DNA of 64,000 bases from sequence record MN850601.1; one strand, written 5' to 3'. The first letter of the stretch is position 1. Every line of letters starts with the position of its first letter. This document shows, piece after piece, positions 2,376-64,000 of the stretch. The translations under genes were made by a program, and so were the position numbers. The DNA is from Escherichia phage inny. The notes under the pieces were generated by a model. That model worked only from the letters and a program-made list of their open reading frames with translations. It did not search any database and was not told the origin of the DNA.

Positions 2376-5251
2376 TGTCAAGAATTAAGCACAGAATTGA
2401 CAATGTTTTTCAACTGATCGATGGACATATTCAGTTCTTAGATCGTAATACAGGTTTAACTGTAGATCCTACAGTGCAACACTATGTATTAAACCCACAA
2501 AACGTTCTAGCTAATAACAGACACTTTATAAACTGGACTGCTCAAGAAGGGCAACCAAACGGGGATGCTACAACAGAAGGTCAATCCGTGCTTATTCTTG
2601 GTTGCGCTTATGCATACCTAGCTTCCGGCGATACAAAGTATTTAGACTCTGCTAAAAAATATTGGCAAGCCTATATAGATTACTTCTTTGGTGGTCAACC
2701 TATCCCAGATCCGCCAGCAAAGTATCGCCCTAACTGGATTATTAACGGTAAAGAACCACGTCTTGCACATTATCCTCTTACAGATGATGGCTACCCTACA
2801 CACGGAGGTTTTAAGGGTAGCTTAATGACGTGGACTAACGGTAGAACAGTTATTCCTCATGGTGCTCCACATTGGGGAGAATACCTTGACAAAGCATGGT
2901 TTGCTTTTAATGGTAATCTAGGATGGAACTCTGTAAACGCTACAGTATATGCTGTTAATGCAGATGGTACAACAGATTGGTCTAAGAAGGGAGATCAATG
3001 GGATGTTGATTGGATCATTGATCGCCTAGGACGTAAAGTTGATTGGGATGGAAATATCTTAGAAGAAGGTTTTCCAACATCTCAATACGGAACAGTTCAA
3101 CTAAAAAATACTTCTGTAAATGGTACATATAAATTTAACTACGCGACTTGTAACCCTGTTGAACACGGTGGTTATTTAATGGAGCGTAACACTATGTGGC
3201 ATAACAGACCAGTTAACGTTCCGGTAGAAATGGGTTTTCAGGATAATGCGTCAGATGCTGAAACTTGGTGGTGTGATGCTAATTACCTGATGTACCAAAT
3301 TACAGGAGAAAGAAAATATTGGCTATGCTGGCAGTCTTCACTGTTAGTGTGTCAAGATTATTCAAACATTGATATGTTTGATAAATTCTTCCGTAAGTCT
3401 ACATATGCAACTATTCCGTTTACAGATGGCATCTCTTACGATTATTCGTATCCATCTACAGCAATACCTAAATATTCAAGAGATACTTTAGGTTATATTG
3501 TTATTAGACAAGATGTTGCTGCTCAAACAACATTAGAACAGCAATCCATTTGGTTTAAAGTTGATCAGAACTCTAAGTTACGAGTTCAGTTCCAAGGTGT
3601 AGATGACGCAGGACATGGTATTCTTTTCCGTCCAGAATTGGAGCTAAGTAAGACCAAAGATGAAAATAACACAGTAACTTACCGTTGTGGCTTACCATTA
3701 GGTACAGCTAATATGACAAGCATGGATATTCCATTATCCAGCTTTATGAGAAGTACCCCTCCAAATGGTGGAACATATATTATCGCAGATCCGCGAATTA
3801 TTGTTGACTGGGGTGACAATACTGTGGTACAATTTAAGTATGTAACAGGTATTACTGGAACTAATGATGACCAGATTGTTACTGCATCAATGGATACGGA
3901 TGGTGGTGTCACTGTTGGTTTTTGGTTAACCCCTACATCAAAAGCTAATGTTAAGTCTATCACATATAGAACATATGAAGATGACTTTAACATGACTATC
4001 ACGGATGCTCAAGGTTGGAGATGGTGGGCTATGCTACCTAAAACGCAAGGAGCATGGAGTACGAAGACTTTATCAGCCTCTGATTTTAAGTTAAGTGCTT
4101 ACCAGCCTAATCATCCAGAAACAGATCCTAAACCTTCAGCAATAAATCTTACTGCTGTAGATCAGGTAAATTTAGTTCTCGATACGGCTCCTGTCAATGG
4201 TTTAACAGGAACAATAGATTTCTATTGTATTAACGATGTGCCTGAAAGATATTCGTCATCTTCTGGTGATGATTATACCATGTACTTCCGTATCACTGTA
4301 CAGGCTTCAAGTCCTCATACTGCTAAGTTAGGTGATTGTACTATTATTGACTATAAGTTAAATAGTCTTAATTACACACCAGGAATAATTCCATTCTCTA
4401 ATATTAGTGACCCAAACACTGCATTGTATGATGGCTGGCGTGGTATTCCATACCCAGGATACCAATACCCTTCCTTATACTGTTTTGCAGGTAGAGATAT
4501 TGATTGGACGCGTTTAAATAACAGTATCAATTTCTTGTATGATTCTCAAATGTGGTTTTATAACACATTCGATCCTGTGATGCCTGGGCCTATGGCACAA
4601 GCGTATGTGTGGGATCGTTGGGATGCAAGAAAATACGGTGAACCAAATACGTTCACAATGAAACACTGGAATGAAAAAGCGTGGGATGGTTATGAAGCTC
4701 GTGCATTCTACTGTGCTTGTCATGCTGTATACGAACTTGTACAAAGAGGAGAAACACCTCCTGAAAAACTAGTAACAGTTTGTAAAAATTGGATCAACTA
4801 TCTTAAATGGTTCCAAGACAATAATGATGGAAGAACACCAACTATCTTTAACCCAGATGGTACAGTTCTTGCGCCTATAGATGACTTTACTAGTCATATG
4901 TCTGCACTGTTTATGGCGGGTTGTTCAATCATGGGCTTGGCAGGTTATGATTCACAAATTCCAAACATTGGTATTGTAGCAGACAGATGTTTTGATCTGA
5001 TTCAGCAAAACTATATTGTGCTTTCCCCTAACCATCCGATGAATGGTTCCTGGAGTGTTGCACCACGCCCAGATTCAGATAACGGAATGTTCTTTGGTTT
5101 CCATGCTGGAGAACTATTACGTGGTTTTGGTTTATATGCCTTGTATCGTAAACTAAACCCTCAAAACGCTTTACCAATTTTGGATAATAGTAACATACCA
5201 ACACTAACTGTTCTAACTATGAATGATATTAGTGTTGATGTAACCAAATAA
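2375..5251 (+). CDS. large baseplate-associated protein, possible (alpha/alpha)6 glycosidase-like domain
   Basis: 958 aa; segment LGCAYAYLASGDTKYLDSAKKYWQ reminiscent of alpha/alpha-toroid glycoside hydrolases; embedded between wedge and J-like genes. Confidence 0.4.
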   Translation: MSRIKHRIDNVFQLIDGHIQFLDRNTGLTVDPTVQHYVLNPQNVLANNRHFINWTAQEGQPNGDATTEGQSVLILGCAYAYLASGDTKYLDSAKKYWQAYIDYFFGGQPIPDPPAKYRPNWIINGKEPRLAHYPLTDDGYPTHGGFKGSLMTWTNGRTVIPHGAPHWGEYLDKAWFAFNGNLGWNSVNATVYAVNADGTTDWSKKGDQWDVDWIIDRLGRKVDWDGNILEEGFPTSQYGTVQLKNTSVNGTYKFNYATCNPVEHGGYLMERNTMWHNRPVNVPVEMGFQDNASDAETWWCDANYLMYQITGERKYWLCWQSSLLVCQDYSNIDMFDKFFRKSTYATIPFTDGISYDYSYPSTAIPKYSRDTLGYIVIRQDVAAQTTLEQQSIWFKVDQNSKLRVQFQGVDDAGHGILFRPELELSKTKDENNTVTYRCGLPLGTANMTSMDIPLSSFMRSTPPNGGTYIIADPRIIVDWGDNTVVQFKYVTGITGTNDDQIVTASMDTDGGVTVGFWLTPTSKANVKSITYRTYEDDFNMTITDAQGWRWWAMLPKTQGAWSTKTLSASDFKLSAYQPNHPETDPKPSAINLTAVDQVNLVLDTAPVNGLTGTIDFYCINDVPERYSSSSGDDYTMYFRITVQASSPHTAKLGDCTIIDYKLNSLNYTPGIIPFSNISDPNTALYDGWRGIPYPGYQYPSLYCFAGRDIDWTRLNNSINFLYDSQMWFYNTFDPVMPGPMAQAYVWDRWDARKYGEPNTFTMKHWNEKAWDGYEARAFYCACHAVYELVQRGETPPEKLVTVCKNWINYLKWFQDNNDGRTPTIFNPDGTVLAPIDDFTSHMSALFMAGCSIMGLAGYDSQIPNIGIVADRCFDLIQQNYIVLSPNHPMNGSWSVAPRPDSDNGMFFGFHAGELLRGFGLYALYRKLNPQNALPILDNSNIPTLTVLTMNDISVDVTK

Positions 5252-5259
5252 GGAAAATA

Positions 5260-7335
5260 ATGAAACAGGCTATTTTTACTGTAACTCGAAATACGAGAGT
5301 AAATGCCAGTTCATTCAGCTATAAGACCGTCGATGGAACGGCGGTCGCTGGTAGAGATTATGTAGCTAAACAGGGAACAGTAACGTTCCCTTCTGATGCA
5401 GATTCTGTTACTGTAGTAGTTGATGTATATGAACGTCCGGCAAACTCTTTAGATCTTTATTTTACTCTTGAGATTACTAGCATAAGTCAAAATAACATGA
5501 TGATCAATGAAGAAATTCGTTGTGTTATTACGACTAATCAATCGAATACAACCCCGCTAACTTGGCCTGTTGTGAAGTCTAGAATGTTTGATCCTAAGTT
5601 TTGGACAATAGATTCTCAAGCAACAGAGAGTTGTTCTATTATCTCTAATGGTGATTCTTTCACAGCAAGAATGGTTAATAGGACAGTGGCTGGTCTTGCT
5701 GGGATTATTTGGTCAACTTACGATAAATATGATCACAAAGGATTAGGCTACCAAGAACATTCTGACTTAAGTAAAGAGAAACTTTGGTTTAAAATGGAAC
5801 TTAGTCAAGGTGTTCCTGGATTAAAAGAAGAAAAATTATTGCCATCCTTAACAGTGACACTGAAGGATGAAACAGTTCATTATGTATCTCTAAACTTTTA
5901 TGCAGAAGAAGTTTCAGAGGACGGTAAAACAGCAATAATCAAATTAGATTTCTCAAATTTAAAATCTGGGCCAGAAAATGATATTGTTGTTGACACTACA
6001 CAGATAGATAACATGTTCTTCTCCTTGATTTCCGCAAGGTATCAAGAAATTGAAGATGTTATACCAGTAGACAATATAGATCTTTCCTTTAAGTTTACCA
6101 TACTAGAGCCTGATACTGGTTACAGTATGATGAATATGGGTAATTTAAATGTTCCGGCGCACACCATAAGAATGTGTACATCTTATGATGATATGTATAA
6201 CCTAACCCCAGAGCGAGTTATTTCTAACACCTATAGATTAGGTTATAGAGATATGATTAACCATTATAATGGTATGTCACACTATTATCAATTTAGTTGG
6301 GATGCTGGATCTAATAAATGGGCTTTGAACAGAACAGAATATTTAAACCCAGCAACAGAAGCCTGGTTTGATAATTTCCACGCTAATGCAAAAGCTATGG
6401 GCTACACAGTAATGAACTCCTTAAGTTTTGAAATTATGAGTACAGTGTGTCCTGTAGAATGGGTACAACATACTTGGAATGATGATCTGGCTGCTACAGG
6501 TTATGAGCCACCAAGTTATGTTTTATCTCCTTCAATTGATGAAGGGATGAATTATTTACAAGGTGTAATAAATAAGATAGCTTCTATATCCGCTGCTAAT
6601 GATCTTCCGGTTATTATTCAGGTTGGTGAACCGTGGTGGTGGTATAACACAGCTACCAATCTACCGTGTATTTATGATTATGCAACCAAAGTTGCATTTA
6701 ATAATGAAACTGGGTTATATGCACAAGATGTTGGTACAGTTAAGAATTATAAAACTGGTACACCATATGATGAATATTATGCATTCCTATCTAAAACATT
6801 AGGACTGCGTGTTGCTAAATTTGCAACAGATACTAAATTAGCCTATCCTGGAGCTAAAGTTACATTATTACCATTTGTGCCATCCATTTTAGGTAATGGT
6901 ATGATGGAGTTTGTTAACTTCCCTAAAGATTATTATATCCCAGAAAACTTTGACTTTTATTGTTCAGAATGTTATGACTGGTTGTTGGAAGGTCAGATGG
7001 AAAGATCTTTCGACGCTATTAAAATACCTAATGAGCAACTAGGTTTTAGTTATGATAAGATACATTATCTTGCAGGGTTTGTTCCAGATGCAACTCTAGC
7101 ACCATTATATGGCTTTGATCCTGAATCAGACTACAGAACATATTTGTGGAAAATGATTATAGGTAATATCGTATTGAACGACCAGAAGTTTGTTGGTTTG
7201 TATCAATACATATGGGCTTATCCACAAATTATGGCAGATTCATTAACTGTTCTTAATTCAAAATCCCAAGTTTTTTATATGGGTAACGTACCTCTGAATG
7301 TCTTTTTACAAGATACAGTATATGTTTCTTCTTAA
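5260..7335 (+). CDS. baseplate-associated protein with N-terminal Calx-beta-like domain
   Basis: 691 aa; N-terminus VDGTAVAGRDYVAKQGTVTFPSDADSVTVVVDVYE matches Calx-beta pattern. Confidence 0.4.
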   Translation: MKQAIFTVTRNTRVNASSFSYKTVDGTAVAGRDYVAKQGTVTFPSDADSVTVVVDVYERPANSLDLYFTLEITSISQNNMMINEEIRCVITTNQSNTTPLTWPVVKSRMFDPKFWTIDSQATESCSIISNGDSFTARMVNRTVAGLAGIIWSTYDKYDHKGLGYQEHSDLSKEKLWFKMELSQGVPGLKEEKLLPSLTVTLKDETVHYVSLNFYAEEVSEDGKTAIIKLDFSNLKSGPENDIVVDTTQIDNMFFSLISARYQEIEDVIPVDNIDLSFKFTILEPDTGYSMMNMGNLNVPAHTIRMCTSYDDMYNLTPERVISNTYRLGYRDMINHYNGMSHYYQFSWDAGSNKWALNRTEYLNPATEAWFDNFHANAKAMGYTVMNSLSFEIMSTVCPVEWVQHTWNDDLAATGYEPPSYVLSPSIDEGMNYLQGVINKIASISAANDLPVIIQVGEPWWWYNTATNLPCIYDYATKVAFNNETGLYAQDVGTVKNYKTGTPYDEYYAFLSKTLGLRVAKFATDTKLAYPGAKVTLLPFVPSILGNGMMEFVNFPKDYYIPENFDFYCSECYDWLLEGQMERSFDAIKIPNEQLGFSYDKIHYLAGFVPDATLAPLYGFDPESDYRTYLWKMIIGNIVLNDQKFVGLYQYIWAYPQIMADSLTVLNSKSQVFYMGNVPLNVFLQDTVYVSS

Positions 7336-60220: not shown

Positions 60221-61393
60221 ATGACAGCACCAAAATCATGGGAACAATATAAAGAAGAATTAACACCCCTTGCTAAAAATCGCAATATTCAAATCCGGGG
60301 TTATGTTGGTGAATGGAAAGGGAACAAGACTAAACTTAAGCTATCTTGCCCTAAACATGGAGAGTGGAACACCACGAACATTAATGATTTTAAGAAGGGA
60401 CGTGGTTGTCCTATCTGTTCTGGTAAGAAGCCGTTAACATGGGAAACAGAATTGCCGATCTTGGAAGAGATAGCACAGAAGAGGGGGTATCAGGTGTTAG
60501 GGTACGTGGGAGAATGGAAAGGGAATAAAACAAAACTTGATTTGTTGTGTCATTGTGGTAATAAATGGGATACTACAAGTATTAACAATTTTAAACGTGG
60601 TAGCGGTTGTCCACAATGTAAGAGGGAGAGACAAACAATGTCCGACGATCAACATATTGCAGATTTCTTTTCTACAGGGGAATTTAAGGAAGGCACTATC
60701 TTCACCAATACAGGGAAACGTAACAAGCGTGATGCAGTATGGATGGTTGAGTGTCCTGTTTGCTCCCATGATGAATATGTTCAAGCAGGTGTTTGTGATG
60801 GTAAATTTTACTCTGCAGGACATAACCTTAAACAAGGGTATATTCCGTGTCGTTGTGGGAACTATCAGTATACAGAAGACCAGATCACCTATAGGGTAAA
60901 AAAGGAAGTAGAAGGGAAAGGGTATGTCTGGGTAGATTGGATTACCAAACCCTCTTCTATAGGTAAGTTTAAATATCTTTGTCTTGTGCATGGTGAGCAG
61001 ATAGGGAGTGCTCGTAATTTATTAAGCCTCGGTCAAGGTTGTCCACAGTGTGCTGGTCATAATCAACAGCAATTATATATTAATATTGTTAAAGATAATG
61101 ATATTATAGTTGCTCTTAAGTTTGGTATATCTAAAGATAGCGATAGACGATTAAACGGTCAAAATAGCCGTAATCTGTTTTTTATGGAGCGTATTTGTTT
61201 ATATGATTTTAGCACAGTGAAACAATGTAGGGCTGCTGAAAGAGCTATAAAGAAAAAATTAAAAACTGGTATTTTAACGGCAAGAGAGTTGAAAGATGGT
61301 TATACAGAAACAGTAAGTGTTTCTGATTTGGAAAATCTTCAAAAAATTATTACACAATATGGTGGCAAATTAGTATACAGTAAGGAGATGTAA
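60221..61393 (+). CDS. zinc-ribbon repeat protein with C-terminal T5orf172/GIY-YIG-like region (tentative)
   Basis: Repeated module Y(V/L)GEWKGNKTKL..C..HG.W.TT.IN.FK.G.GCP.C three times (CPIC, CPQC, CPQC); C-terminus IVALKFGISKDSDRRL. Confidence 0.5.
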   Translation: MTAPKSWEQYKEELTPLAKNRNIQIRGYVGEWKGNKTKLKLSCPKHGEWNTTNINDFKKGRGCPICSGKKPLTWETELPILEEIAQKRGYQVLGYVGEWKGNKTKLDLLCHCGNKWDTTSINNFKRGSGCPQCKRERQTMSDDQHIADFFSTGEFKEGTIFTNTGKRNKRDAVWMVECPVCSHDEYVQAGVCDGKFYSAGHNLKQGYIPCRCGNYQYTEDQITYRVKKEVEGKGYVWVDWITKPSSIGKFKYLCLVHGEQIGSARNLLSLGQGCPQCAGHNQQQLYINIVKDNDIIVALKFGISKDSDRRLNGQNSRNLFFMERICLYDFSTVKQCRAAERAIKKKLKTGILTARELKDGYTETVSVSDLENLQKIITQYGGKLVYSKEM

Positions 61394-61945
61394 ATGCGGA
61401 TTACTGATAAGTATGTGTTCTTCTTCTCGGCAAAAGATGAATTTAGCAACTGGTATCTATCATCTTTTATTGAACCTTTAGCTCCCAAGTATAATAATTC
61501 TATTACAAGTTCTGTTGAATTTACTTGTGTGGAACAATATATGATGTGGAGAAAAGCATGTTTGTTTTATGATTACAACATTGCATCTTCTATTTTAACC
61601 GGAGATCTAAGATATACAGGAGAAAAAGAACAGGCATATTATAAGCGACTAGGTAGATTAGTTAAAGATTACGATGAAGCTACTTGGACTTCTTTACGGG
61701 AGAAGATTGTCAAGCGTGGTTTGTATCTTAAATACACACAAAATGAAGATCTCAAAAATAAACTTATCGCTTACGCAGATAAGGAGTTCGTAGAGGCAAG
61801 CCCTTATGATTCTATTTATGGTATCAAAATGGGAATGTGGGATCGTGATGTGGAAAATAAGGACTGTTGGAAAGGACAAAATCTTTTAGGAAAATGGCAT
61901 ACAGACCTTGCTGTTTATCTAAAAGCACAATCTGATATTTCCTGA
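61394..61945 (+). CDS. NADAR-domain protein (YbiA/DUF1768-like)
   Basis: 183 aa; FFFSAKDEFSNWY, EQYMMWRKA, LVKDYDEATW, EFVEASPYDSIYGIKMG and GQNLLGK are colinear with E. coli YbiA; TAAATG coupling. Confidence 0.8.
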   Translation: MRITDKYVFFFSAKDEFSNWYLSSFIEPLAPKYNNSITSSVEFTCVEQYMMWRKACLFYDYNIASSILTGDLRYTGEKEQAYYKRLGRLVKDYDEATWTSLREKIVKRGLYLKYTQNEDLKNKLIAYADKEFVEASPYDSIYGIKMGMWDRDVENKDCWKGQNLLGKWHTDLAVYLKAQSDIS

Positions 61946-62160
61946 TATTTTGAAAATTTTTATTTTTATAAAAAGGGGTGTGGGTTTCATGTACGGAAAT
62001 CCACCCTCTGAATAATATATCCAGAGTAAATATTATTCTGTACTCTGTTAATAAAGTATTTAATTTGTTTGTTTGACTATGGTATCTGATCTTTAAAAGA
62101 CATACTATCTCTTAACTACTACTTATAACAGAACAGTAAAATCATTTTTATAAAAAGTAC

Positions 62161-62365
62161 AAAATTATTTAAAGTTTTTACAGATTTTTGGGTACAAATT
62201 TTGAAAATGAAAAGTTCAAGTTTGGTCAAAATTATTTAAAGTTTTTGTACGTATTTCTGTCCAGATTTTGAAAATGAAAACTTCAATTTTTTAAAAATTC
62301 CCCAGTTTATTTAAAGTTTTTTTGCCTTTTTCCGTAGAAAAATCAAAAATGAAAAGTTCAATTTC
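62161..62365. repeat. three imperfect tandem direct repeats (~67-78 bp period)
   Basis: Each unit holds ATTATTTAAAGTTTTT and GAAAATGAAAAGTTCAA cores (units at about 62161, 62228, 62306); AT-rich, no ORF. Confidence 0.6.
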
Positions 62366-62385
62366 GTGTTTTTATAGGTGTGTTA

Positions 62386-62497
62386 ATGAGAATCATTTTC
62401 GTTTGTAAATGAGAATCATTATCATTTAACTATGTAAGTGATAATCATTCTCAGTAAGAGAATGAGAATCATTAGCAAATGAGAATTTTCTCATTTA
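62386..62497. promoter_or_regulatory. array of Fur-box-like palindromes (candidate iron-responsive operator cluster)
   Basis: AATGAGAATCATT at 62386, 62409 and 62462, GATAATCATTCTC at 62441 and AATGAGAA-TT-TTCTCATT at 62480; 62409..62425 matches the Fur box core at 15 of 16 positions. Confidence 0.5.
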
Positions 62498-62731
62498 GAG
62501 AATAACGCGCAGGGGCGGTGTTTGTCTCGCGCTCCCGTGTCCCCTCGCCATACAATAAGAATAGCATAACCAACAACAAAAGCAAGCGATTATTTTTATC
62601 TTTACATTTCTTTACAAATTTATTTTAGACGAGCTACCGGCGATCAACCTTCCAACCAGTGCCCCCTGGTATGTTAGCCCCGCCTTTACGCCGTGGGGGT
62701 GGCGTTTCCTCTTCTGTATGTAAAACAGTAT

Positions 62732-62750
62732 AAGCCCGATCCCTGGGCTT
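62732..62750. terminator. bidirectional hairpin terminator
   Basis: AAGCCC-GATCCCT-GGGCTT; T-rich on plus side (ATTATTTTTTGTTTT) and directly downstream of minus-strand ORF 62758..63024. Confidence 0.45.
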
Positions 62751-62757
62751 GTCAAGA

Positions 62758-63024
62758 TTATTTTTTGTTTTCTTGCCAGGATAGGACACCTAACCAAAAA
62801 TACATGTCGCCCCGCGCCCCTGGCGGGATCTTGCTTTCCCCGCCGCCACTACAAGCCCATAGATAACCATTAGCGAACGGATCAAAATGATCTATTTCTT
62901 CCACCTTATGATCGCCCAGGTTGAGAACGGTTTCAACCTTTAAGCCCGTTGCGCTTGCTACCTGGTGCACCGTGCCGCCTTGCCAGCCTAATGAGTGCAT
63001 GAGGTGTAGAGTAGTATTTGTCAT
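62758..63024 (-). CDS. hypothetical protein in GC-richer segment
   Basis: 88 aa; AAGG-type RBS; codon usage visibly GC-richer than the phage core. Confidence 0.4.
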   Translation of the reverse strand: MTNTTLHLMHSLGWQGGTVHQVASATGLKVETVLNLGDHKVEEIDHFDPFANGYLWACSGGGESKIPPGARGDMYFWLGVLSWQENKK

Positions 63025-63137
63025 GGTATCGCCCTTTCTTTGATGTGCGCCCTGGTTGGCGCGGTAGAAAGATAATAGCCCTTTCCTTTATAGATAGCAA
63101 GCAAAAAAAAGAAATGAAAAAAAGATTAAAAAAGGGG

Positions 63138-63166
63138 TTGACGTTCCTCACCTGGTAGCGTATTAT
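63138..63166 (+). promoter_or_regulatory. candidate sigma70 promoter
   Basis: TTGACG, 17-nt spacer, TATTAT, preceded by A-rich tract. Confidence 0.4.
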
Positions 63167-63293
63167 TCATCTTGTCGAGGGGGGCGAGGCACAACGACAA
63201 TAAACAAAAGGAGGGCGCAATGTAGGACGGGCAAAGGTGAGGATCTCCATAATCCACCGTCACAATAACATTACTTATAAAAGGTTGATAACG

Positions 63294-63389
63294 ATGATCA
63301 AGAAAGAAAACAGCTTGACGGTTGGAACGATTAACGCTATCATTCTTGCCGTTCCATTTTGGATTGTAGTTGCGGTTATTATTTTTTAA
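63294..63389 (+). CDS. small hydrophobic peptide (not in ORF track)
   Basis: 31-aa ORF MIKKENSLTVGTINAIILAVPFWIVVAVIIF with AAGG upstream. Confidence 0.3.
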   Translation: MIKKENSLTVGTINAIILAVPFWIVVAVIIF

Positions 63390-63397
63390 AAATATTC

Positions 63398-63425
63398 TTG
63401 ACAACGTTTTTTAATCTGATAAGAT
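63398..63425 (+). promoter_or_regulatory. candidate strong sigma70 promoter
   Basis: TTGACA, 16-nt spacer, TAAGAT, about 50 nt upstream of ATG at 63478. Confidence 0.45.
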
Positions 63426-63477
63426 GTATCACATAGGGCGGCAATAGTGCCGCTCATAACAGAAGAGAGAAATAATC

Positions 63478-63750
63478 ATGGCATCATATAGCGCATCAAT
63501 GATCGTAATGGGCATCACTGGTAAACCTATGCGCGGTGGCGGATCTTTCGCTAACATCAATATTGATGGGCGTTTATCCCTGGATGCAGCGATCACCGTG
63601 GCACGGGAAACATTTAAAAAAGAATGTAATTTCAATAAACAAGATTATCTCGGTTTCGCTATTGAAAAAACCGCGCGATTTGTGGATTATAAAAGCCCGA
63701 AAATGATCGACACTACACTAAAAGCGCAAGATGTAGCGTTTTTGCTTTAA
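63478..63750 (+). CDS. hypothetical protein
   Basis: 90 aa; GAGAGAAATAATC RBS; downstream of TTGACA promoter. Confidence 0.45.
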   Translation: MASYSASMIVMGITGKPMRGGGSFANINIDGRLSLDAAITVARETFKKECNFNKQDYLGFAIEKTARFVDYKSPKMIDTTLKAQDVAFLL

Positions 63751-63753
63751 GTC

Positions 63754-63781
63754 TTGACACTGAAAAATAATTTGGTAATAT
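63754..63781 (+). promoter_or_regulatory. candidate strong sigma70 promoter
   Basis: TTGACA, 16-nt spacer, TAATAT, about 55 nt upstream of ATG at 63839. Confidence 0.4.
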
Positions 63782-63838
63782 ATACTCCATAAGGCGGGAA
63801 ATGGTTTCCCGCCAGGCCATCAAAGAAAGGGTAACACA

Positions 63839-64000
63839 ATGAGCAAGCAAATCAATACTATCATGTTAAACCTGGTATCTTTCCGCGACGACGTGAAAAA
63901 TCTTCCACGTGATGCAGTGGATGCACGGATCGAAAGCTATCGCTCACAGATCGCAACGCTACCGCTAAAACGTGATCAACATGCCGCTAATATGATGCTT
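63839..64000 (+). CDS. hypothetical protein, 3' partial (runs off window end)
   Basis: ATG at 63839 with AAAGGG RBS; frame open to window end. Confidence 0.4.
   Translation, partial: MSKQINTIMLNLVSFRDDVKNLPRDAVDARIESYRSQIATLPLKRDQHAANMML

Follow-up and report, generated by a model that had tools for sequence, protein, structure and literature searches.

A conserved non-coding core with its own promoter, a candidate early RNA gene, in phi92-like and rV5-related phages

The 64,000-nt stretch of Escherichia phage inny considered here (MN850601.1; the whole stretch is called the window) belongs to a phi92-like E. coli myophage and carries, from about 62500 to 63100, a GC-rich patch for which the original prediction, made without database searches, proposed a horizontally acquired or host-derived segment, a distinct genome-end module or, in its left part, a structured RNA. 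The question raised by this locus is which of these, if any, accounts for the patch. The comparative data point to a strongly conserved non-coding core on the minus strand (62610-62722), directly preceded by a promoter, P1 (62727-62755), and the reading judged probable, with modest confidence, is that the core is an undescribed RNA gene transcribed from P1. The patch would then be the right half of a non-coding control region conserved in phi92-like and most rV5-related phages, followed by a gp224-like gene and the start of an early gene module.

The conserved core and its promoter

The core, a candidate early non-coding RNA, scores 127.8 bits with a covariance model and E=3.7e-32 with nhmmer, and the corresponding RNA reads 5'-ACAGAAGAGGAAACGCC-A-CCCC(C)-AC-GGCG-UAAAGGC-GGGG-CUAAC, followed by a hairpin (CAUACCAG..CUGGUUG) and GAAGGUUGAUCGCCGGUAGCUCG. 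The comparison comprises 46 loci with 38-39 distinct core sequences, obtained by pattern scans of viral, metagenome and genome collections, the core alignment holding 35 distinct cores and the promoter scoring 36 distinct full-length loci. Conservation of the primary sequence is firmly established: mean column identity of the core is 82% over the 35 distinct sequences, and 62610-62722 is about 85% identical in distant Vequintavirinae (Mydovirus and Certrevirus) whose flanks fail to align. Specifically, 62599-62724 is 82-86% identical in Klebsiella phage KB57 and its relatives (Mydovirus) and in Raoultella phage Ro1, as well as in the Certrevirus members Cronobacter phages CR9 and PBES 02 and Pectobacterium phage POP17, the remainder of a 641-nt query being unaligned in all of these; for a longer segment, 62490-62724, the identity is 69-75% in PVP-SE1 (Seunavirus) and Erwinia phage pEp_SNUABM_01 (Henunavirus). 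In rV5, scanned over the first and last thirds of its genome, the only core-like match is a degenerate one of 14 bits, followed by Fur-like boxes, in a 2.6-kb gap, a region labelled 'non-coding' in the rV5 paper. In the coordinates of the rV5 stretch used (NC_011041 100000-112000, L046), the gap occupies 4014-6619, the Fur-like boxes stand at 5003, 5101 and 5119, and the core-like match is at 5144-5246 on the minus strand, UGGAUCGCCAGUGGUGCG.

Conservation of this kind is not explained by a protein. The absence of a convincing plus-strand open reading frame (ORF) from 62500-62730, noticed at the outset, is borne out by the comparison, in which no such frame is conserved and the hairpin loop varies in length among homologues by amounts that are not multiples of 3. 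Among the distant-phage matches listed, most are unannotated at the core and some of those inspected are overlaid by small hypothetical ORFs; a small ORF over the core was rejected, since such ORFs start upstream of the promoter, are not conserved and are broken by the loop indels. Known RNA families do not account for the core either: against Rfam 15 the whole window gave no match at the gathering threshold, the core gave none at E<=10 and four homologous loci gave nothing relevant at E<=1, and an ARAGORN search of the window returned neither a transfer RNA (tRNA) nor a transfer-messenger RNA. A CRISPR-repeat mimic, a CsrA sponge based on GGA motifs and a Shine-Dalgarno decoy were compared by eye and set aside, the GGA motifs and the repeat-like stem not being invariant, and no convincing complementarity to RyhB was found.

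Promoter P1 (TTGACA-17-TATACT, minus strand) matches the sigma-70 consensus at 11 of 12 positions, with a predicted start near 62720. A scripted search recovered it at the homologous place in 36 of the 36 distinct full-length loci, with 9-12 of 12 consensus positions and a spacer of 17-18 nt; the hexamers hardly change from locus to locus and the spacer sequence is free to vary, the arrangement expected of a sigma-70 early-class promoter (hexamers 17 +/- 1 nt apart). Conservation resumes at the predicted start itself, ACAG(A/G)AGAGGA. In every lineage the spacer (62733-62749 in the window, 17-18 nt among loci) forms a GC-rich palindrome whose sequence differs from one lineage to the next; that of the window doubles as the terminator of the neighbouring gp224, and some related phages have no upstream minus-strand gene. 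An early promoter class, AAAA(N3)TGTTGAC(N19)TATAAT, has been described in Certrevirus in front of small early ORFs (PMC7344957). P1, and likewise a promoter with a Fur-like box found in relatives, shares with that class an A/T tract, a TTGAC-type -35 element and a 17-18-nt spacer; the Certrevirus class precedes small ORFs, whereas P1 precedes a non-coding block.

A natural insertion bears on the unity of promoter and core. Compared with its congener KB57, Raoultella phage Ro1 has an HNH endonuclease gene inserted in the core at GGAUCGCUGGUA|GCUCGCC (cassette at 739-1591 of L006, NC_048682 18927-22020). The HNH gene lies on the same strand as the core, 25 nt past the truncated core, and has a ribosome-binding site and no promoter of its own. 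Further along the cassette come another promoter, TTGACA-17-CATAAT, and a divergent core, which the covariance model scores at 47 bits and which joins up again with the normal downstream block. The insertion has the appearance of a homing cassette supplying a substitute for its own target that resists cleavage, and the supply of a substitute promoter together with a substitute core argues that the unit is functional and that the promoter is part of it.

RNA fold, transcript strand and the wider module

The proposed minus-strand fold consists of stem S1 (CGCC/GGCG), stem S2 (CCCC/GGGG) and the hairpin CAUACCAG...CUGGUUG, with loop lengths for S1 and S2 that are those of an H-type pseudoknot. 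Over the 35 sequences, 93.5% of the cells of this fold are paired, compared with 23-47% in slid controls, and changes on both sides occur in just 2 pairs. One is the hairpin pair 53-75, which is unbroken throughout, with A-U in 22 sequences and G-C in the other 13. Stem S2 is CCAA/UUGG in pEp_SNUABM_01 and in the second copy of Ro1, and intermediates GUGG and GGGG are found in two metagenome sequences. An alternative long-range helix, CGGCG(A)/(U)CGCCG, shows four changes from G-C to G.U and two from C-G to U.G, wobble pairs that are valid on the minus strand only. Within the core, the pairs of this minus-only type are 33-90 (GC in 31, GU in 4), 32-91 (CG in 32, UG in 2) and 28-46 (one UG), and in the 3' domain further downstream pair 5-49 is GU in 15 and GC in 6, again with a G.U pair on the minus strand only. 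Such minus-only G.U substitutions count for the minus strand as the RNA strand. In a hand-drawn outer helix of the 3' domain, pairing reaches 87%, with many minus-only G.U pairs and no significant covariation; for the full RNA, RNAalifold returned short local helices only.

On this evidence the RNA fold is plausible but unproven. In the mechanism favoured here, host sigma-70 RNA polymerase would start at P1 (62755-62727) and read leftward through the core from 62722 to 62610, and the transcript would probably extend across the rest of the conserved block as far as about 62500, at the border of the Fur-like boxes. The RNA may fold into a small H-type pseudoknot (CGCC/GGCG and CCCC/GGGG) and a hairpin with a freely variable loop, leaving an invariant single-stranded stretch, G-AAGGU-NN-AUCGC, that could act in trans or as the leader of a leftward transcript entering the region of Fur boxes and repeats. 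Any one mode of action assigned to the RNA is tentative, and clearly less probable than the existence of the RNA gene.

Several points weigh against this reading. The 13 G-C cases of pair 53-75 each have a broken neighbouring pair and probably represent one clade, so that the covariation is thin, amounting to one or two events, and stem S1 is invariant and hence uninformative on pairing. RNAalifold found no consensus fold for the 3' domain, and, by minimum free energy, 62495-62721 does not fold more stably than its dinucleotide shuffles (z of +0.65 and +1.0 for the two strands). Transcription from P1 is predicted here from sequence alone, there is no canonical terminator past the core to define the 3' end, and primary-sequence conservation of this strength would also fit a protein-binding DNA site. 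A plus-strand reading of the locus also exists and is considered below. The suggestion of a structured RNA in 62500-62730 thus points to something real, a strongly conserved non-coding unit, on the strand opposite to the one envisaged and with weak support for the fold; the description of the patch as hairpin-rich is not confirmed by the folding energy, although terminator-like motifs are mildly enriched (6 found, 2.1 +/- 1.3 expected).

The core is part of a wider module. To its left, five genera have in common the order direct repeat, leftward promoter-like site, 3' domain, Fur-like boxes and three iteron-like repeats, and this order is kept while the flanking genes differ. In the window, the conserved continuation of the non-coding block, delimited by alignments, occupies 62503-62609 on the minus strand. 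It holds the direct repeat UUUGUAAAGAAAUGUAAAGA (62599-62618, minus strand), which occurs once in the window and corresponds to UUUGUAAAGAAnUGUAAAGA in the five-genus module, a promoter-like site, P2 (62558-62585, minus strand), which is weak in the window (TTGCTT-16-TATTCT) and reads TTGCAA-17-TATATT in most other genera, and a GC-rich 3' domain (62503-62558, minus strand) whose alignments reveal a conserved loop, GAGACAAACACC.

Next comes an array of Fur-box-like palindromes (62381-62503), the best at 62410-62424, 62439-62453 and 62463-62477 and degenerate ones at 62381-62401 and 62480-62493. The motif TGAKAATNATTMTCA has 3 matches in the window, all within this array, against 0.13 expected, and the box spacing is 23-29 bp. 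At least one Fur-like box is present in 34 of the 36 related loci, with one to five boxes in the five-genus module; in the relatives the distance between the proximal box and the 3' domain is constant, additional boxes recur every 29 bp, and some relatives have perfect matches to TGATAATnATTATCA. Further weak Fur-like matches in the window, at 63286-63300 (2 mismatches) and at 63417-63431 (3 mismatches, overlapping the -10 element of the promoter at 63398-63425), may mean nothing, as hits with 3 mismatches are common in the window by chance.

Beyond the boxes, three AT-rich iteron-like repeats about 70 bp apart (62144-62364; 3 copies against 0.03 expected) are found where the G+C content of the window is lowest. 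CR9, KB57, pEp_SNUABM_01 and PVP-SE1 have three homologous repeats at the matching place, and exactly three were delimited in each of the relatives examined in coordinates (L004 1086-1267, L003 1094-1296, L007 1219-1434 and L002 1228-1436); the repeats of the five genera share the core TTTTCATTTTCnAAA at a spacing of about 62-78 bp. The small ORFs 202 and 203 annotated across the three repeats of PVP-SE1 (L002 1015-1442) are unlikely to be genuine genes. At the far side, a long GC-rich hairpin followed by UUUUUAU (61967-62008, minus strand only) was read from the sequence and is absent from the list of the terminator scan; it would terminate leftward transcription through the AT-rich region, not that of the upstream NADAR gene.

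These features lend some substance to the reading that survives best beside an RNA gene, a cis-acting replication-origin module, in which G-rich leftward transcripts from P1 and P2 would enter the Fur-box palindromes and the iterons and activate or prime replication, so that the core would matter within the transcript or the DNA and not as a free RNA. As sequence features, those of an origin are present, namely iterons, an AT-rich region and inward-facing promoters, and the three-repeat block is a candidate origin or protein-binding array. The number and place of the repeats are kept across five genera, the region that contains them is the window's poorest in G+C, the tandem leftward promoters face them, a hairpin with a T-run closes the far side, the module order persists while flanking genes differ, the Ro1 cassette restores the contiguity of promoter plus core with the downstream block, and the plus-strand GC skew of about -0.15 to -0.2 corresponds to G-rich leftward transcripts. 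Nevertheless, the iterons of the window align with those of the other genera as reverse complements only, the block seeming to be inverted in phi92-like phages; neither an initiator gene nor DnaA boxes were identified; it is not obvious why a primer transcript would need 85% identity over 110 nt; and the turning points of GC skew in the window track gene orientation, as is likewise reported in the rV5 paper. An origin is regarded as unlikely, with an appreciable residue of probability.

Somewhat less probable still is a small RNA from the plus strand under Fur repression, which could stand by itself or be antisense to a minus-strand RNA. A promoter with a Fur box in its spacer would fire rightward at low iron, and the transcript, of about 215 nt and with the C/U-rich, anti-Shine-Dalgarno-like motifs CCACCUUCC and UUUCCUCUUCU, would end at the hairpins of 62680-62711. 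This is consistent with the position of the proximal box, which in other genera lies on the plus strand exactly inside the spacer of TTGAAT-18-CAGAAT (Seunavirus, Certrevirus, Avunavirus and others; TAGAAT in Av-05) and at a fixed position relative to the downstream block; the TTGAAT site is often preceded by AAATTTTTTG, a phage early-promoter signature, three plus-strand terminator-like hits fall at 62680-62711, and two pairs of one CR9 hairpin are of G.U type on the plus strand only. The corresponding site of the window, by contrast, GCAAAT-17-GAGAAT (62475-62503, plus strand, read from the sequence), is a poor promoter with a poor -35 element, and Mydovirus and Henunavirus carry CTGAAT or CGGAAT, without the essential A at -11. 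The lineage of loci L036 and L040 retains P1 and core without an adjoining Fur-like box (in the 360 nt scanned, L040 has none and L036 has one, at the far edge), the tail after the hairpins is pyrimidine-rich and not U-rich, the RNA has no similarity to RyhB or PrrF, and the conservation of P1 in all 36 loci and the replacement copy in Ro1 would be left unexplained.

The two strands may also be combined. In this scheme, which is about as improbable as the plus-strand RNA, a virulent phage would read the iron status of its host through a convergent RNA switch, the minus-strand RNA being made constitutively early. Loss of iron from Fur would derepress a rightward early-class promoter lying within the Fur-box array, and an exact antisense would result. 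If true, the antisense would alter the fate of the leftward transcript entering the AT-rich DNA and the iterons, through which replication or the early programme could be adjusted to the iron supply. The RNA gene transcribed from P1 remains the preferred reading of the core.

Base composition, gp224 and the start of the early module

The GC shift that first drew attention to the locus is real. The G+C content of 62500-63100 is 48.6%, compared with a window mean of 37.5% (standard deviation 2.6%, 600-nt windows); the maximum of the whole 64 kb at the 200-, 400- and 600-nt scales falls in this patch, and the minimum (24.6%) is immediately to its left, at 62000-62499. The 88-aa minus-strand gene of the original prediction (62758-63024) is likewise confirmed and corresponds to phi92 gp224 (phrog_19316, E=2.9e-59), the phi92 counterpart region running from gp223 (NADAR) through gp224 on to gp227. 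Its G+C content at third codon positions (GC3) is 0.506, that of the ORFs at 63478-63750 and from 63839 is 0.385 and 0.472, respectively, and the mean of the 31 long ORFs of the window is 0.271 +/- 0.042, in agreement with the GC-richer codons proposed for the small genes. In phi92, the ten small genes of gp225-gp235 have GC3 values of 0.35-0.53, with one exception, and the three upstream genes have 0.29-0.31, so that elevated GC3 is a property of the entire small-gene early module; higher values would fit early genes read by the host translation apparatus.

The predicted strong promoters downstream were also found. The rightward module starts within 63138-63781 (plus strand; phi92 counterparts gp225-gp227) with four sigma-70 promoters, at 63138-63166, 63315-63343, 63398-63425 and 63754-63781, each matching 10 of 12 consensus positions, and with small ORFs at 63237-63389 and 63478-63750 and a further one from 63839, just past 63781 (GC3 0.39-0.47). 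In a weaker form than originally proposed, the compositional shift is thus supported as the border of a small-gene early region with host-type promoters and higher GC3. Three things would account for it: the conserved RNA segments that are rich in G+C, the gene gp224, and an early-gene codon usage resembling that of the host.

The gp224-like gene (GC3 0.51 as rounded) has its own promoter on the minus strand, TTGCTA-17-TATTAT (63072-63100, 9 of 12 matches), and its transcript would end at the hairpin AAGCCCAGGGAUCGGGCUU followed by AUACUGUUUU (62732-62750, minus strand), a terminator-like motif of the scan that lies inside the P1 spacer. This hairpin had been taken for a bidirectional terminator, which the scan contradicts: on the plus strand the T-run begins about 10 nt past the stem and no terminator score is obtained there. 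A Pfam search with gp224 gave no match. The AlphaFold2 model (predicted local distance difference test score, pLDDT, 94) is all-helical with five helices; compared with the PDB it has no significant fold match (best E>3, with Cro/XRE proteins at E 7-10), and the sole match of a profile search against the PDB was a CAP repeat (E=5.8e-4, 24 residues), so that a helix-turn-helix is only hinted at by model and profile. The 21 homologues found come from sources consistent with phage origin: several are on contigs of 140-148 kb, one bears the name of a Serratia phage protein, and one cluster of relatives has an NCBI name tagged [Escherichia coli], the search of E. coli genomes with the present locus giving no match. 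The 60-aa ORFs at the corresponding place in KB57, PVP-SE1 and Ro1 were rejected as homologues of gp224, at 17-20% identity.

The GC-rich segment is specific to the phage family and not derived from the host. A blastn search (word size 11) of 5,426 complete E. coli genomes with the 641 nt around the patch found nothing, and the single match in the pattern scan of bacterial genomes is a metagenome-assembled contig carrying the phage locus. The same query matches 238 phage records. Across 61900-64000, identity is 99.3% to Escherichia phage Paula and 96-99% to about 50 further phi92-like phages (Justusliebigvirus, Stephanstirmvirinae), always at one conserved locus, and at least 51 full-length and 238 partial phage records have the segment at the corresponding place. 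The matches include five entries under the name 'Campylobacter phage' (MG065645, MG065650 and others), with the locus at about 83-85% identity; to judge by size (146-151 kb) and content, they may be phAPEC8-like coliphages filed under a different host. Upstream, 60221-61393 encodes a 390-aa protein with four CapR-homology zinc-finger repeats and a T5orf172 domain that matches PHROG endonuclease families and is likely to be a free-standing homing-type endonuclease, 1.1 kb from the locus.

An acquired or host-derived island, or a genome-end module, is accordingly the weakest of the readings and highly improbable, for, against the atypical composition and codon usage and the endonuclease-like gene upstream, there stand the lack of any E. 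coli match, a location conserved across two subfamilies, gp224 relatives only from sources consistent with phage origin, and records that start or stop near the locus at chance level (3 of 238, about 1.6 expected), locus truncations in the collections being unreliable as contig ends. Of the genome-end proposal, what stands is the border of the early module; evidence for a physical genome end was not found. The original prediction was to fall if composition showed no shift and homologues were confined to related phages at the same position: the shift exists, and the homologues are confined in this way. The observation was largely correct, apart from the hairpin-richness and the bidirectional terminator; its reading as an acquired or host-derived segment was wrong.

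Significance and comparison with known systems

Phages of the phi92, phAPEC8, PVP-SE1 and CR3 types are widely used as broad-host-range phages and therapy candidates, and their largest non-coding region had previously been noted merely as such (rV5 paper). The literature searches returned no description of the core element or of Fur boxes in these phages, and a Fur operator-like array in strictly lytic phages appears to be undescribed in the literature searched. What is new here is a unit of about 110 nt, about 85% identical between members of two subfamilies, that has an early promoter of its own and lies beside operator-like sites for the host iron regulator Fur. It offers a testable entry to the control of early transcription or replication, and to whether a strictly lytic phage senses host iron; in practical terms, it concerns a locus that is unannotated or covered by small hypothetical ORFs in the matches inspected.

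Of the known systems, the Fur-regulated small RNAs (RyhB, PrrF and FsrA) resemble the locus in having a non-coding unit of 100-220 nt adjoining Fur operator-like sequences, with the box of the relatives in a promoter spacer. They differ in that there is no similarity in sequence or model (PrrF reaches 16.8 bits, against a gathering threshold of 90, and the match falls on the boxes), that the best-supported promoter here is on the opposite strand and has no Fur box, and that the unit is encoded by virulent phages and has a non-canonical terminator. The small stable RNAs rnaC and rnaD of T4, which are located in the tRNA cluster and processed from it, likewise represent a conserved early non-coding gene, of the abundant type, in a large myophage, whereas the present unit has its own sigma-70 promoter and no tRNA nearby.

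A different set of parallels is provided by transcription-activated origins, such as T7 phi1.1A/B with its AT-rich region (the primary origin), T4 oriF and oriG, and ColE1 RNA II. Common to these and the present locus are tandem promoters facing an AT-rich repeated region and a G-rich transcript, which here are predicted from the sequence; the known origins are not known to have Fur boxes or a highly conserved, structured-looking core. Finally, lambda OOP and cII form a convergent pair of sense and antisense RNAs, and the two facing promoters of the present locus, about 220 bp apart, would similarly give fully overlapping transcripts, with the difference that neither would overlap a coding gene and that one of the promoters would be under the putative control of a host metalloregulator.

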